In this document: one piece after another, positions 9,515-15,022 of the stretch
Layout: each line of letters opens with the position of its first letter
Numbering within the stretch: the first letter of the stretch is position 1
Virus record (IMG/VR): IMGVR_UViG_3300031949_001696
From: a virus
Lineage: Duplodnaviria > Caudoviricetes
Length of the DNA: 64,000 nt
Reading direction: 5' to 3' (one strand)
The notes under the pieces: model-generated
Databases searched by the model: none
The model's input: the letters and a program-made list of their open reading frames with translations, nothing else
Told to the model about the DNA's origin: nothing
Made by a program: the position numbers and the translations under genes

Positions 9515-9945
9515 TGAGACTTGTGCCCGATCTGGAGGCGCGTTTCATTCGGCACGAGGTCCGCGTCGAGATGCGGCGGTTCGTCAAGCCCGAGGCATTC
9601 GCAGAGAGGCCGAGCGGTCCTTACACTGAAAGCGACTTCGAGGAGCGGACAGGACCTGTCGTGTACATTCCCGTCGTCGAGACGCTCGCGGAGGCTGACG
9701 GTGTGTGGTTGCTGTGCCCGAAGTGCTACGCGGAGAACGGAGGCTGCGTCGGCACGCACGCGGTGATCTGCTGGTTCGTCGGCAAGGTCGATGACGACGT
9801 CGACCCCAAGCCCGGACGGTGGACGCCGGCCGGGACGGGCCTTTCCGACCTGACGTTCGTGCCGAGCGCGGGCCGCAGCCATTCCGTGTTGCTCACGGGC
9901 GGGTGCATGGCGCACTTCTTCGTGAATAATGGAGATGCTCTATGA
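9514..9945 (+). CDS. Cys/His-rich phage hypothetical protein (CPKC...GC.AHFFV..G)
   Basis: ORF translationally coupled on both sides. Confidence 0.6.
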   Translation: MRLVPDLEARFIRHEVRVEMRRFVKPEAFAERPSGPYTESDFEERTGPVVYIPVVETLAEADGVWLLCPKCYAENGGCVGTHAVICWFVGKVDDDVDPKPGRWTPAGTGLSDLTFVPSAGRSHSVLLTGGCMAHFFVNNGDAL

Positions 9946-10619
9946 GGTGTGGTCTCTATAAGATCCTTGGGCCAGGCGGAAGATTCTATGTAGGCCAATC
10001 AATCGACATTTCAGCGCGTTGGCATTATCACCGCACGCAGCTTCGGTGTGGAACGCACGGGAATGCAAAACTACAAAACGCCTGGAACAAGTATGGCGAG
10101 AGCGCCTTCATCTTTGGGGTGATCGCTTTTTATCCTGTCGAGGACCTCGATCGTCACGAGCAGATCTGGCTTGACACCACTGATGCCGTCTCGCATGGAT
10201 ACAACATCGTGGCATTCGCCTCATCGAACCGAGGCTTTGCAAATCCAAAGGTGTCTGAGCGAAATCGACGAACACGAGGCAAGGATCATCCATCGTTCGG
10301 AAAGCCACGGCCTGATCTTGCAGCACGTAACCGCACGGAGCCTAATCCCATGAAGGGTAAGAAGCTGCCTGAGACAAGCGCTGTAAGAGTACGTGCACGT
10401 CTACGAGGACCACTGCATTTCAACTATGGCAAGAAGCGCGTGCATCCGCAGCATCTGTTTGGTCCGCAGAAACTGCGCGCACATATTGATGTCATTCAGC
10501 AGCGGCTACGCGCGGGTGAAACCGTCGCGGCGTTGGCGATCGAATTCGGGGTAAACTGGAAGACCGTCGACAAGATCAAGCGCTGGCACGGCCACGTGGT
10601 CAACGGGGTCGCGAGTTGA
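9942..10619 (+). CDS. GIY-YIG homing endonuclease with NUMOD-like repeats and C-terminal HTH
   Basis: GLYKI...FYVGQS.D..ARW..H, LQNAWNKYG, GYN; lower GC than flanks. Confidence 0.88.
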   Translation: MRCGLYKILGPGGRFYVGQSIDISARWHYHRTQLRCGTHGNAKLQNAWNKYGESAFIFGVIAFYPVEDLDRHEQIWLDTTDAVSHGYNIVAFASSNRGFANPKVSERNRRTRGKDHPSFGKPRPDLAARNRTEPNPMKGKKLPETSAVRVRARLRGPLHFNYGKKRVHPQHLFGPQKLRAHIDVIQQRLRAGETVAALAIEFGVNWKTVDKIKRWHGHVVNGVAS

Positions 10620-10694: not shown

Positions 10695-11285
10695 ATGAAG
10701 TTGAAAGTTCCAAAGCTGGATTGGAAGGGAAAGACGCTCAAGCTTCGCTCGATCGTTCTCTCGGGCGCACCGCTCGTCGAGATTGATCGTGAGGTGCTCG
10801 ACATGTTTGACTTCATGCGCAAGACGCTGCGTGGTGATCACAACGCTGAAGAAGCTAATCTTCCCATGATGCAAGCATCGCCAGCATCGATGCAGTGTCT
10901 TATGCGCTTTATGTGGGAGCCTTACTCCGATGGTAAGGGCGCCGTCGAGTCCATCTACGGCTGGATCCTGGACGCCACGACGTACTGCGTAGACGGAAAG
11001 CCTTGGTGGCTCGTTCGCGCGAACAACAAGCTGGATGAACCACCGGCGAGATCGATCCTCAAGATCGAACGTGTCGACTGTCTTGGCGCAGATGTACAAC
11101 GCGATCGGATCATGAACTGCTCGTTCGGTGGCGGTCGCGGATACTCGATGTGGTGGACGTGGATCAATCAGCTTCCGATGCTGGAGATGCAGGTACGGAA
11201 GAAGCCCTTCGACATGCGTATTGTGGAGGAAGGATCTCCCTTGCCGGTTGGATACGAGCGAATGCCGCGTGCGATGTCAGCCTAG
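10695..11285 (+). CDS. Hypothetical protein
   Basis: Long ORF with natural composition. Confidence 0.6.
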   Translation: MKLKVPKLDWKGKTLKLRSIVLSGAPLVEIDREVLDMFDFMRKTLRGDHNAEEANLPMMQASPASMQCLMRFMWEPYSDGKGAVESIYGWILDATTYCVDGKPWWLVRANNKLDEPPARSILKIERVDCLGADVQRDRIMNCSFGGGRGYSMWWTWINQLPMLEMQVRKKPFDMRIVEEGSPLPVGYERMPRAMSA

Positions 11286-11704
11286 TCGCGCGCCGTCTTG
11301 CTGCCGACTAAATTTCGACATCGTCAACGCACGGCGCGTCGAGCCAGTGCCGAACGATCCGCCGGCCGGCGATCCGCTCGACGACGGCGGGACGCCACTT
11401 GTCGTCACCGCGCTTGCACATGCCGCACGCGATCTTCGGGTTGCCGAACAGGCGCCCGCGGCACTTGTCGCAGCCGAGCCCTTTGCGCTTCGCGAACCAC
11501 CAGACCGATTGTTCGCAGACGCAGTCGATGTTGCCAGTGGGATGGATGCGCGCGAGGTGATCGCGGCGGCGCCGCGCTCCCTTACGGTACGTACGATCTC
11601 GACGAGCCTCTCGCTTCTTCACGTGAACCTCCAAGCGCGCCCGCGAGGCGCGCGATAGTGAGGTCCAAGCTCGTCACGTTTTTACTGTACCAGTTTCGAT
11701 TGAG

Positions 11705-11780
11705 AGAGCCCGGCGGGAGTCGAACCCGCGACCAACGATTTCATCACTTCGCTGCTCTAACCAACCTGAGCTACGGGCCC
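11705..11780 (-). tRNA. tRNA-like gene, Ile-type body, aberrant anticodon loop containing GAT
   Basis: GGGCCCG-TA-GCTCAGGTTGGTTAGAGC; T arm GCGGG-TTCGACT-CCCGC; anticodon arm GCGA-AGTGATGAAA-TCGT. Confidence 0.75.
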
Positions 11781-11852
11781 GAACGGGTCGCGCTTCGCCA
11801 CGTCTGAGGTGGCGACGAAGGCGATGGATTCCGAGCCCACCACAAGCGCTAG

Positions 11853-11926
11853 CGGATCCCACCGGAGTCGAACCGGCCATGGCGAGGTCATTATTCTCGC
11901 TGCTTCTCCTCGAAGACTTGAGATCC
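11853..11926 (-). tRNA. tRNA-like gene, identity undetermined, 9-nt anticodon loop
   Basis: Acceptor GGATCTC/GGGATCC, arm GCGAG-AATAATGAC-CTCGC, T arm GCCGG-TTCGACT-CCGGT. Confidence 0.65.
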
Positions 11927-11931
11927 ATACG

Positions 11932-12007
11932 TGCAGGGAGGTGGGATCGAACCGACCGACCTCCGGCCATGTGATGTACCGGTGCTCTACCACTGAGCTA
12001 TTCCTGC
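11932..12007 (-). tRNA. tRNA-like gene, Gly-like body, 10-nt anticodon loop
   Basis: GCAGGAA-TA-GCTCAGTGGTAGAGC; arm CCGGT-ACATCACATG-GCCGG; TTCGATC loop. Confidence 0.7.
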
Positions 12008-12010
12008 AAG

Positions 12011-12082
12011 AGCCTTCGCACGGAGTTGAACCGCGGGTCGCCTCGTTAGAAACGAGGTGCTCTGACGTTGAGCTACGAAGGC
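12011..12082 (-). tRNA. tRNA with TCT anticodon (nominally Arg), degenerate D loop
   Basis: Acceptor GCCTTCG/CGAAGGC, arm CCTCG-TTTCTAA-CGAGG, T loop TTCAACT. Confidence 0.75.
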
Positions 12083-12154
12083 ATGGCGGAGGCGCCACCT
12101 CCGGCGTCCAGCTCGCGCTGTGCGCCGGTTGATCCGGTAACGCCTCCATAAGCG

Positions 12155-12613
12155 TTAGCGAACGAGCCGCAAGCTCGACACCGCCTTTCCGACCGTCTTG
12201 CGATCATGTGTGGGGTGAACTCCGATCGCGGTCGCCTGTTCGTCAAACGGACCGGCGTTTTCGCGGATCAAGACGTGCGGAACGCCGCGCGCGGTGAGAC
12301 GCGCAGCGATCGCGAGCAGCTCGGCCTCGTTCGGGACGCCGAGCACCACGGCGATGGATCCCGGCGGAGCGGGACCACTCTCGCCGGCGGCGTGTGCGAC
12401 GTGGGCGGCGAGGACGCCTTTCGGCAGGTCTTCGCGGACGACCACGTAGTGTGTCTTCGGAGGGTCCGAGGACGGGGTCTTGGGGACGCTGCTCGACGAG
12501 GAACTCGGAGCGGCATCATCGGCCTGGGGAAACGCAGAGAACGCTCGAAGGCGCTCACGGTCAATGGCTTTGCGACATGCAGCTATCCTGCGGCGCCGTT
12601 CGCGGGATGTCAA
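12155..12613 (-). CDS. Peptidyl-tRNA hydrolase, Pth2-like (start uncertain)
   Basis: YVVVREDLPKGVLAAHVAHA, VVLGVPNEAEL, LIRE, TAIGV.P, SLRL. Confidence 0.82.
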   Translation of the reverse strand: MTSRERRRRIAACRKAIDRERLRAFSAFPQADDAAPSSSSSSVPKTPSSDPPKTHYVVVREDLPKGVLAAHVAHAAGESGPAPPGSIAVVLGVPNEAELLAIAARLTARGVPHVLIRENAGPFDEQATAIGVHPTHDRKTVGKAVSSLRLVR

Positions 12614-12818
12614 GTGGGGTTGTGATCATGAAGCACCCGCTCCTCGCGCGGAGCGGGTGAAAGAACCGAGCCTGCGCGGGCTCACCAGCTCGTGTCCGAT
12701 CGTCATCGGGCGTTGCGGGACGCCGAGAGATGGCGTGCCTTGCGGCAGAGGCCCGGCGGGTGTGTTGTGGCGACTCTAGCACTTGATCGTGATCGACTCG
12801 CTCGCGCGATCGAAATTG

Positions 12819-12847
12819 TTGACGATCGCGCGGCTCACGAGTAGTTT
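12819..12847 (+). promoter_or_regulatory. Sigma70-type promoter for tRNA-Met/Ser/RF unit
   Basis: TTGACG-17 nt-TAGTTT just before tRNA-Met. Confidence 0.6.
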
Positions 12848-12852
12848 CTTCG

Positions 12853-12925
12853 TGCGGGGAGAGTGCTGGTTCTCAGAGTGGTCTCATAAGCCTCTTGACG
12901 TCGGTTCGATTCCGACCCCACGCAA
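12853..12925 (+). tRNA. tRNA-Met(CAT)
   Basis: CTCATAA loop, T arm GTCGG-TTCGATT-CCGAC, bulged acceptor TGCGGGG/CCCACGCA. Confidence 0.78.
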
Positions 12926-12937
12926 CGAAGTGTTCCG

Positions 12938-12982
12938 ATGACGTCGCACCTCTCATCTCTGTCTAGTCGCAGTCGCTCGTAG
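12938..12982 (+). CDS. Putative Ser-rich leader peptide MTSHLSSLSSRSRS
   Basis: 7 of 14 codons are Ser (TCG, TCA, TCT, TCT, AGT, AGT, TCG); stop inside hairpin 12971-13000; precedes two tRNA-Ser. Confidence 0.68.
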   Translation: MTSHLSSLSSRSRS

Positions 12983-13003
12983 CGTCGCTACGTGCTGACT
13001 CCT

Positions 13004-13089
13004 GGAAGGTGAGGTGGGGGCTGGTCCCCACGCCCGTCTCGAAAACGGGATGCCCCGAAAGGGGCCGGGTTCAATTCCTACTCCTTCCG
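13004..13089 (+). tRNA. tRNA-Ser(CGA), tRNA-Sec-like/allo-tRNA (8/4-type) fold
   Basis: 6-bp D stem TGGGGG-CTGG-TCCCCA, CCCGT-CTCGAAA-ACGGG, long V arm, short T stem, G73. Confidence 0.8.
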
Positions 13090-13100
13090 CTGCGAAAAAT

Positions 13101-13185
13101 GGAAGGCGAGTCCGAGCAGGTGCTGGAGGCCGGTTGCTAACCGGTTAGTCGCGTGAGCGACCGGGTTCGAGTCCCCCGTCTTCCG
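13101..13185 (+). tRNA. tRNA-Ser(GCT), 8/4-type fold
   Basis: 8-bp acceptor GGAAGGCG/CGTCTTCC, GCCGG-TTGCTAA-CCGGT, V arm GTCGC-GTGA-GCGAC, G73. Confidence 0.82.
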
Positions 13186-13194
13186 CGGAGGAAA

Positions 13195-13882
13195 ATGATC
13201 ATGAACGCTTCATCCGATTCCGTTGTCGTCGAGGTCCGTGCTGCGGAAGGCGGCAACGATGCCAAGCTCCTCGTACTCGAGCAAGTGAAGATCTACGTGC
13301 GGCTCTGCGGCCGGAGGTCTCTTTGACGTCGAACTCGTAGAGGATCGCCCCGGCATCGCCGTGCTCTGCGTCTCGGGCCGCGGCGCCACGGCGCTGTTCG
13401 CGGGCGAAGCGGGCGGGCACCGATGGCAACGCGTGCCCGAGACTGAGAAGCGCGGTCGTGTACATACGAGCACGATCACCGTCGCCGTGCTCGAAGAGCC
13501 GCGTCACGTCGACCAGACGATCCGGCCCGAGGACGTCGACGTCGAGACGATGCGCGGATCAGGTGCCGGCGGCCAGCACCGAAACAAGACCGACTCGGCC
13601 GTGCGCGCGCGCCACCGGCCGACCGGCATCGAGGTCCGCTGCGAGGCGGAACGATCGCAGCATCGGAATCGTGAGCTGGCGATGCTCGTGCTCTCCGCGC
13701 GTGTCGCGGAGCTGACGCGATCGGCCGTGCAGGGAGCGCGCGACGCTGATCGACGACAGCAGTTAGGATCGGGGATGCGCGGCTGCAAGATAAGAACGAT
13801 TCGTGTGCAGCACGACGTAGTGGTAGACCATCAGACAGGTCGACAGTGGGCGCTGAAACAATACCTTCGCGGCGACTGGTGA
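13195..13882 (+). CDS. Class I peptide release factor-like protein (PxT and GGQ motifs, lacks domain 1), join(13195..13323,13325..13882) by +1 frameshift
   Basis: Frame 0 VEVRAAEGG.DA; frame +1 GEAGGHRWQRVPETEKRGRVHTST and SGAGGQHRNKTDSAVR; GGAGG-TCT-CTT-TGA-C at 13313-13327. Confidence 0.92.
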
Positions 13883-14799
13883 TGGACGACGATGAGATGG
13901 CGAGTGCTTACCTTTCCGGCGCGTCTCTACCGCAGATCGCAGCTGTCAACGGACGTCCTTACGACTTCGCACGTCGTCACGTATTGCGAGCCGGCGCTAC
14001 GCCGCGGAGTTCCGCGGAAGGTGTCCATCTCGCCAAGCGCGTACAGCAGGACGTTGAGGTGACAGAAGAGCTGACCGAACTGATCGACGGCCTTCTTCTT
14101 GGTGACGGCCATCTAGAAGCTACGCAGTGGAGCGCGCGTCTGACACTTGGACAAACAGCAGCCCATCTTCCATGGCTACAGCAAGTACACGGCATTCTTA
14201 CGCGGAGTGGCGTTGCGTCGACAATACAAGTTCACGGGCGCGCAGGTCAGATGAGCGTGCACGGAAAGCGATTTCGCCGTCGACGATCACGCGCGTTGCG
14301 TACAGCGCGCTATGTGTTTCTGAAAGCAGTGCATGCGCGTTGGTATCCGAATGGCGTAAAGCGGGTACCGCAAGATGTTCGCCTAACGCCGCTTTCGATC
14401 GCGCATTGGTATTTTGGCGACGGTACTGTTGGGTGTCGTGGTTACCACGCAAAATTCTGCACTGATGGGTTCTCGGCGGCTGATGTGCGCAGGCTCATGC
14501 AGGCGCTCACGGAGCGGTTTGCATGGGCGCCTGTTCTTGAGCAACGAAACCGAATCTTACTTTGCAAGACGTGCGATCGAGCTTCTCTCGTCAAAATGCT
14601 ACGAAGCTCACAGGTCCCGCGCTGCTTCCGTCACAAGCTTCGGCTGCGACTTCAAGATCGTAGATTCGTCGTTATAGGAACCAAGGAAGAGCGCCTGCGC
14701 GACTTGCGCCTGCGCGAGCTGAGCTACGGCAGGATCGCGATGGAATTGAAATTGTCGAAGAGTGGCGTCTTCAGCGCCTGTCAGCGTTTAGGCGTTTAG
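13882..14799 (+). CDS. Double-motif LAGLIDADG homing endonuclease with terminal HTHs
   Basis: LIDGLLLGDG and IAHWYFGDG, WYPNGVKRVP, FCTDGF. Confidence 0.88.
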   Translation: MDDDEMASAYLSGASLPQIAAVNGRPYDFARRHVLRAGATPRSSAEGVHLAKRVQQDVEVTEELTELIDGLLLGDGHLEATQWSARLTLGQTAAHLPWLQQVHGILTRSGVASTIQVHGRAGQMSVHGKRFRRRRSRALRTARYVFLKAVHARWYPNGVKRVPQDVRLTPLSIAHWYFGDGTVGCRGYHAKFCTDGFSAADVRRLMQALTERFAWAPVLEQRNRILLCKTCDRASLVKMLRSSQVPRCFRHKLRLRLQDRRFVVIGTKEERLRDLRLRELSYGRIAMELKLSKSGVFSACQRLGV

Positions 14800-15022
14800 G
14801 GATCTGAGTCCACGCGGCGACAAGCGCCATCCGCACGCAAGGAAGCGGCCTGTTGTTTTCATGCAGGCACTCTACCCGGGTTCGCCTCGTCGCAGTCGGT
14901 GAGTGCCAACTGACCGTGGGGCCCCGCGCAGTTGGAGATCTTGCCACGGGTCCGCGGCCCCCGATCACGTCGACGGCCGGACGTGGCGCTACAAGGCGTA
15001 CGCACGCGGCGACTGGTGAGGC

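Follow-up and report, generated by a model that had tools for sequence, protein, structure and literature searches.

A conserved, serine-codon-rich leader open reading frame and hairpin precede two tRNA-Ser genes and a short release-factor gene in a Caudoviricetes genome

We analyzed a 64,000-nt stretch of DNA (hereafter, the window) from the IMG/VR virus record IMGVR_UViG_3300031949_001696 (Duplodnaviria; Caudoviricetes), in which a short, serine-rich leader open reading frame (ORF) and an overlapping hairpin lie immediately before two tRNA-Ser genes. The window is part of a phage-like contig of 332,853 bp. The plus strand carries, in this order, a promoter-like element, a tRNA-Met-like gene, a 77-nt spacer, tRNA-Ser(CGA), tRNA-Ser(GCT), a release-factor gene, and a LAGLIDADG gene. 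The leader ORF runs through the spacer from the ATG at 12938–12940 to the TAG at 12980–12982, with MTSHLSSLSSRSRS as its product. Seven of its 14 codons specify Ser (TCG twice, TCA once, TCT twice, and AGT twice), drawn from both the TCN and the AGY boxes, and its TAG adjoins the apical loop of the hairpin. An earlier note, made from the letters of the window, had described seven Ser codons of both boxes, a hairpin enclosing the TAG and ending 3 nt before the tRNA, two downstream tRNA-Ser genes with CGA and GCT anticodons, and the lack of a U-tract after the hairpin. All of these points were borne out, the codons by direct count and the missing U-tract by scans and inspection. One correction concerns placement: the ORF sits in a spacer between tRNA genes, after the tRNA-Met-like gene, and not directly after a promoter.

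Dinucleotide-preserving shuffles of the spacer gave an ATG-initiated ORF with at least seven Ser codons at P = 0.0012, and an ORF of this kind with any start codon at P = 0.005–0.007. The hairpin of the window was marginal by itself (local segment, z = −1.74, P = 0.04; whole spacer, z = −0.43); many regions upstream of tRNA genes had been open to the earlier note, and the window alone would not settle the matter. The C/G ratio was 1.9 in the window ORF and 1.3–2.7 over the family of related loci, in which pyrimidines make up 62–72% of the leader. A decayed tRNA was rejected as a description of the 77-nt spacer, which gave no Rfam signal even at E values up to 10.

Homologous loci were sampled through the neighboring release-factor protein and not through the leader, so that the sample is unbiased with respect to the leader ORF. 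The 24 loci contained 22 distinct leader–hairpin sequences, and their release factors showed 57–87% protein identity to that of the window. Both the leader ORF and the hairpin were present in all 24 loci. The start codon is ATG in 23 leaders and GTG in the decayed L188; the ORFs are 14–18 codons long, with lengths of 14, 15, 16, and 18 codons all keeping the frame; and the stop codon is TAG in 22 loci and TGA in L471 and L188. Among the window's ORFs with a high G+C content at third codon positions (GC3), TGA accounts for 77% of stops. In 22 of the 24 loci, the leader frame holds 6–11 Ser codons, from both boxes, versus 0–3 in each other frame; examples of the predicted peptides are MLSRCSSRSSSSSRS (L001), MIRFSSQSSTSRSSSSSS (L165), and MYTLSSHSSSSRSSS (L055). 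Dinucleotide shuffles returned P values from <0.0002 to 0.014 in 12 loci of separate lineages.

The hairpin was significant over the family (mean z = −2.7 for the 22 distinct sequences), and the stop codon lay inside the apical loop or within 2 nt of it in 20 of them. At least seven different stem sequences are in use, with subfamily variants such as GTAGC/GCTAC versus GTAGT/ACTAC, GTCGCGC/GCGCGAC, and CGCGTC/GACGCG, which indicates that pairing has been maintained by compensatory change. The letters of the stem on either side vary, whereas the stop triplet keeps its place at the apex. These loci establish the anatomy of the element, its conservation, and the concentration of its Ser codons in one frame.

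Purifying selection on the leader element is likewise established, because the leader is far better kept than near-saturated sites of the neighboring gene: four-fold degenerate sites of the release-factor gene showed 37–68% identity to the window, which is near saturation at this GC3, and the leader ORF showed 65–98%. Several further features implicate the reading frame. In L467 and L472, AGT→TCG and TCG→AGT exchanges at two Ser positions give a new stem sequence with an unchanged peptide tail. Ser occupies three aligned columns throughout the 16 core sequences, and two of these columns use more than one codon. Length differences between lineages are multiples of three only, and one relative's contig contains a +1/−1 pair five bases apart. 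The earlier note had staked its claim on homologues keeping the ORF and its Ser enrichment, and both were found (ORF and hairpin in 24 of 24 loci, Ser richness in 22); on the grounds of this conservation, the regulatory leader that it proposed is the best reading of the locus.

Searches by other routes were also performed. A 14-base leader pattern gave about 220 matches in viral and genome collections, none of them adjoining a tRNA-Ser gene, and they were accordingly taken as chance matches. Neither a scan of viral contigs with a single protein nor an exact scan with a stretch of the tRNA-Ser sequence gave a match. BLASTn of window positions 11000–15000 against phage genome records aligned only 71–75 nt, corresponding to an opposite-strand tRNA (annotated as tRNA-Met in phage Merlin).

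Both tRNA-Ser genes are real and belong to a known unusual kind. They were missed by ARAGORN at default settings and by the Rfam tRNA model at its gathering threshold, and were found with relaxed ARAGORN settings, which misdrew the acceptor stems. Their best Rfam match was the tRNA-Sec model at 41–43 bits, under its cut-off of 47, because both genes have the 8/4 fold. In each, the acceptor stem is 8 bp long, the D stem has 6 bp and a small loop, and the variable arm has 5 bp. Both window tRNAs have G8:C as the eighth acceptor pair, as do nearly all GCT-type relatives; in some relatives this pair is A8:T or T8:A, and some CGA-type relatives lack it. Mukai et al. (2017, PMC5389517) described the (8/4) tRNA-Ser class, in which an 8-bp acceptor stem and a 4-bp T stem make up a 12-bp acceptor branch, from some bacteria (proteobacteria) and the phages that infect them. 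The window genes share with it the 8-bp acceptor stem, the shortened T stem, the long D stem with a small loop, the long variable arm, the serine anticodons, and the placement in a phage tRNA cluster. They differ from it in that the fourth T-stem position is mismatched, leaving three pairs. Such genes are invisible to default finders, and phage tRNA counts in genomes that carry them are probably underestimated.

The leader's Ser codons had also been said to match the CGA and GCT anticodons. This holds for four of the seven codons in the window (TCG and AGT), which the two downstream tRNAs decode, and fails for the remaining three; over the family, TCA, TCT, or TCC make up about 38% of leader Ser codons, and codon choice does not vary with the tRNA-Ser genes that come next. 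The rare Ser codons AGT, TCA, and TCT occupy 54% of leader Ser positions versus 17.5% in genes, a usage that fits a sensitive sensor but also a non-coding composition. Set beside its relatives, the window copy appears a little eroded: CTG stands at codon 8, which is TCG in 15 of the 16 core sequences, the stem is mismatched at 12993 where relatives have A, and the tRNA-Met-like gene scores below the cut-off and ends in CGA. The coordinates of the features are given in Table 1.

Table 1. Features of the leader unit and the adjoining genes in the window
Feature	Position	Strand	Remarks
Promoter-like TTGACG-N17-TAGTTT	12819–12847	+	Ends 5 nt 5' of the tRNA-Met-like gene
tRNA-Met(CAT)-like gene	12853–12926	+	ARAGORN call; Rfam tRNA 24.5 bits (cut-off, 29)
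Short spacer, AGTGTT[TC]CG type	12927–12937	+	From tRNA-Met 3' end to ATG; conserved in the core family; no Shine-Dalgarno sequence
Leader ORF, 14 codons + TAG, 7 Ser codons	12938–12982	+	ATG, frame, Ser richness, and stop kept in the family
Pyrimidine-rich tract (leader ORF codons 4–9; C-rich, G-poor)	12947–12964	+	
Hairpin	12971–13000	+	5' arm formed by the last four codons of the leader ORF; stem base 3 nt 5' of tRNA-Ser(CGA)
tRNA-Ser(CGA), 8/4 type	13004–13089	+	Relaxed ARAGORN; Rfam tRNA-Sec match
tRNA-Ser(GCT), 8/4 type	13101–13185	+	Relaxed ARAGORN; Rfam tRNA-Sec match
Short RF1-type release-factor gene	13201–13882	+	Starts fifteen nt after tRNA-Ser(GCT)

Except in L055, the leader AUG is likely to stand near the 5' end of its RNA. 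In the core family, it follows the 3' end of the upstream tRNA by 9–12 nt, and in L034, L181, and L188, it follows the −10 part of a TTGACG-N17-TAGNNT element by 6–11 nt. A sequence of this form (TTGACG-N17(18)-TAGNNT) occurs at the equivalent place in 17 of the 24 family loci, and TTGACG-N17-TAGNNT occurs once in the 64-kb window, both strands counted. A stricter sigma-70 scan did not call the element. From its conservation, we infer that it is a promoter, and it may represent a promoter type specific to the tRNA-Ser/release-factor operon. The release-factor gene is probably the last gene of a transcription unit shared with the tRNA-Ser genes.

On balance, we lean toward the interpretation that the leader ORF acts as a ribosome-read sensor of serine decoding, in which the ribosome would open the hairpin beside the tRNA; leader translation, sensing, and the output step are what we infer from the sequence features described above. 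The mini-gene would report the speed of serine decoding and possibly that of UAG termination. Initiation would be independent of a Shine-Dalgarno sequence, with the AUG at or near a 5' end produced either by transcription or by the 3' cut of the upstream tRNA. A ribosome dwelling on the Ser codons or at the stop would keep the hairpin and the preceding pyrimidine tract unpaired, and fast passage and departure would let them re-form. The behavior of the ribosome would thereby alter the yield of mature tRNA-Ser and probably that of the release-factor mRNA as well.

The output step was considered with respect to termination, folding, and Rho. No terminator-like site was found between 12684 and 13303 on either strand, and a hairpin with a U-tract directly 3' was seen in no family member by eye and in none of the window, L055, and L181 by scan; some loci have a run of 3–4 T before the tRNA, apart from the stem. 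Without an intrinsic terminator, the output step would not be classical attenuation, and trp-type attenuation was rejected on the negative intrinsic-terminator scans. A more likely output would be the gating of tRNA folding and of RNase P access to the 5' leader; alternatively, the ribosome might mask a C-rich Rho loading site. We slightly favor folding or processing over Rho, because the window's arrangement, in which the ORF comes after a tRNA, makes tight coupling of ribosome and polymerase unlikely and because the hairpin is held near the tRNA 5' end, its base being 2–12 nt from the RNase P site across the family. In nascent-RNA fold predictions, 6–13 of the first 14 tRNA bases paired with the pyrimidine tract of the ORF in every member, extending the hairpin. 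The predicted cloverleaf and the leader:tRNA-5'-strand state differed by about 0–4 kcal/mol in full-precursor folds, and the tRNA acceptor stem formed in 20 of 21 predicted folds when the leader ORF was masked. A specific anti-acceptor pairing of the leader with the tRNA 5' strand had weak support, barely above background, and the support for folding and processing as the output is accordingly weak.

Several observations weigh against a translated sensor. None of the 24 leaders has a Shine-Dalgarno-like 4-mer at −20 to −4, and GGAGG is present before the adjacent release-factor gene in at least 16 of the 24 loci. L055 departs from the usual arrangement, with an untranslated region of about 80 nt that likewise lacks a Shine-Dalgarno sequence. 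L034 (4 Ser) and L188 (2 Ser) have kept the hairpin and lost most Ser codons, and the leader is absent from more distant release-factor loci that have tRNA-Ser genes, which makes it specific to one clade. Minimum changes in the leader were distributed 13/12/13 over the codon positions with no third-position concentration, and particular codons are conserved; this even spread and the fixed codons indicate that RNA-level constraints (the stem and the pyrimidine tract) also act. Non-Ser positions are mainly Phe, Leu, Arg, and Cys, and part of the signal is pyrimidine richness and not Ser as such. Complementarity between leader and tRNA had a mean z of −0.87 against shuffles and was mostly compositional; the pairing stood at about the 85th percentile against random genome segments, with P = 0.036 for cognate versus non-cognate partners.

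The foremost rival draws on several of these points. It holds that the locus encodes an untranslated RNA element in which a pyrimidine tract and a stable hairpin serve tRNA-precursor processing, stability, or polymerase pausing, for example as an RNase entry or blocking site or as a fold-guiding 5' leader, with the ORF and its Ser codons arising incidentally from a UC-rich tract and a GC-rich stem. The missing Shine-Dalgarno sequences, conservation at the nucleotide level without third-position focus, pyrimidine-rich codons at non-Ser positions, and the retention of the hairpin in L188 and L034 all speak for it, as do the family-wide significance of the hairpin on its own and the fact that the tract of every member can base-pair with the purine-rich 5' strand of the tRNA. 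However, an untranslated element gives no reason to expect that 23 of the 24 loci have an ATG at a constant distance, that lengths change by multiples of three only, that the stop triplet stays at the apex amid stem turnover, or that Ser codons concentrate in one frame (6–11 versus 0–3) and come from both boxes, including the purine-rich AGY. Nor does it predict the peptide-preserving AGT/TCG swaps in L467 and L472. We regard this explanation as possible but rather doubtful.

A bolder form of the sensor interpretation, which we consider unlikely, is that the mini-ORF lets the operon test translation capacity in a self-referential way, gating tRNA folding and RNase P maturation and not termination, with feedback from the tRNAs and the release factor. 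Under this proposal, the AUG, the Ser codons of all isoacceptor families, and the UAG would correspond to the operon's initiator-like tRNA, its two tRNA-Ser, and its RF1-type factor, respectively. If true, this would constitute a new class of ribosome-gated tRNA maturation switch.

We find it improbable that the C-rich, G-poor tract works mainly by loading Rho and so restricting read-through into the genes for tRNA-Ser and the release factor, with any translation serving, as in tnaC or mgtL, just to mask it, although a loading site there could also be the output step of the sensor. The C/G ratio of 1.3–2.7 in all leaders, a C>G stretch of about 80 nt at 12881–12960, and the lack of an intrinsic terminator after the hairpin in every scanned locus are in keeping with such a site. 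The classical trpL leader has a 1:2 pause hairpin, which the stop-in-loop hairpin resembles. However, the free tract is just about 30–45 nt long, and the structured 3' half of a tRNA takes up half of the C-rich stretch; in the window's arrangement, where the ORF follows a tRNA, it is difficult to see how a lead ribosome could be tightly coupled to the polymerase; and TCN codons bring C richness anyway.

There is very little to recommend a functional Ser/Arg-rich micropeptide, with the flanking tRNAs as processing punctuation that releases its mRNA: the ORF is conserved and a C-terminal S-R-S or S-S-R-S recurs, but conservation of the peptide itself is poor (many positions exchange H/R/F/L, S/F/C, or R/S/C), the distant lineages L055, L165, L470, and L471 are alike in composition and not in sequence, and the features that persist are the RNA hairpin and the content of Ser codons. 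Chance occurrence of an ORF in a GC-rich spacer between tRNA genes, which the earlier note had already thought unlikely and which the marginal window hairpin and the many upstream regions available might have suggested, is excluded for practical purposes by the window shuffles (P = 0.001–0.007) and by the recurrence of the features in 22 of 24 homologues despite near-saturated synonymous sites.

The element resembles the classical attenuators trpL, hisL, pheL, thrL, leuL, and pheM (before pheST) in that its ORF is very short and dense in the codons of a single amino acid, in that the stop falls in the loop region of a hairpin with sensing codons in its 5' arm, and in a proposed logic that ties decoding speed to genes supplying the pathway of that amino acid. 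Unlike them, it has no Shine-Dalgarno sequence, 3:4 terminator, or U-tract, and no clear antiterminator alternative was found; its ORF follows a tRNA gene, and the genes it would control are those for tRNAs and a release factor instead of biosynthetic or synthetase genes. With the Rho-dependent leaders tnaC (tna operon) and mgtL (mgtA), it shares a leader ORF beside a C-rich stretch, no intrinsic terminator, and an outcome that would be decided by ribosome position at or near the stop. It differs from these in that the C-rich stretch is short and lies within the ORF, the targets are tRNA genes, and a role for Rho is only proposed.

In mycobacteria, ribosomes stalled on leaderless polycysteine short ORFs block an inhibitory RNA structure (Canestrari et al., 10.1101/834739). 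Like those ORFs, the phage leader is short, lacks a Shine-Dalgarno sequence, would lie near an RNA 5' end, and needs no terminator, and the proposed logic of a ribosome stalled on a codon run and blocking a downstream structure is also similar. The mycobacterial structure hides the ribosome-binding site of a protein gene, whereas the phage structure adjoins a tRNA 5' end; and the phage start is mostly placed 9–12 nt from a tRNA 3' end by sequence, not at a mapped transcription start.

A full-text literature search found no paper on leader-peptide control of tRNA genes. Phage tRNA genes are usually viewed as constitutive add-ons that correct a codon-usage mismatch or replace tRNAs cut by host defenses. 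If the sensor interpretation is true, giant phages would gauge the decoding capacity of the host for individual amino acids and supply their own tRNAs and release factor on demand, and leader-peptide sensing would extend from amino-acid biosynthesis to the translation machinery, in a design that dispenses with both a Shine-Dalgarno sequence and a terminator. As a compact, well-delimited element with 22 distinct natural variants, it lends itself to direct testing in reporters.

The adjoining gene encodes a release factor of about 226 amino acids that has the PCRF and RF-1 domains, GGQ, and the RF1-type PET motif and lacks domain 1. GGAGG stands 8 nt 5' of its ATG, and its expression requires a +1 shift at GGAGG-TCT-CTT-TGA-C (13313–13327). 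This site lies inside the conserved core, whereas the prfB shift site is near the N-terminus. The CTTTGAC motif was found 3' of the leader in at least 17 of the 24 family loci within the range searched. The short release-factor family also occurs on chromosomes of Myxococcota, including Minicystis rosea, Archangium gephyra, and Kofleriaceae/Polyangiaceae metagenome-assembled genomes (loci L172, L177, L186, L220, and L232, among others), which hints at the host group of the phage and at a host origin of the release-factor gene.

A comparable unit lies elsewhere in the window, at 6724–6883, where a 17-codon ORF contains four Leu and five Arg codons. Its TAG falls in the loop of a 12-bp hairpin (6758–6792), 16 nt 5' of a tRNA-like gene at 6809. 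The two units had been regarded as independent instances of one design; the architecture is indeed shared, but with just four Leu among 17 codons, the Leu unit is a weak instance.

The tRNA-Met-like gene of the window is aberrant: its D arm is short, and it has CGA where the CCA end would stand. In many relatives, among them L002, L467, and L469, the tRNA at this position is initiator-like and its CCA end is encoded. In some others, a tRNA-Met(CAT) of 79–82 nt precedes the leader (L003, 2538–2618; L005, 821–900; L465, 975–1056; L471, 1012–1090); these long forms have an extra hairpin of the GCCGAAAGGC type in the variable region and are unusual class II-like tRNAs with a CAU anticodon.

On the minus strand, three tRNA-like genes lie at 11705–12007, two of which match the Rfam tRNA model (46–47 bits) and the third of which was called by ARAGORN only. 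The anticodon regions of the two Rfam-matched tRNAs exceed the model by 1–3 nt, and ARAGORN assigned them the 4-base "anticodons" gatg and tcac. A 6-bp GC-rich hairpin (CGGAGG...CCTCCG) at 12083–12105 on the same strand ends 4 nt 5' of tRNA-Arg(TCT), and no mini-ORF comparable to that of the Ser unit was found in the upstream region of this cluster. The LAGLIDADG homing endonuclease gene (13846–14799) overlaps the end of the release-factor gene; in relatives, it lies on the equivalent side (L001), lies on the other strand (L471), or is absent. A GIY-YIG/NUMOD3-like gene is located at 9942–10619, upstream of the leader unit.

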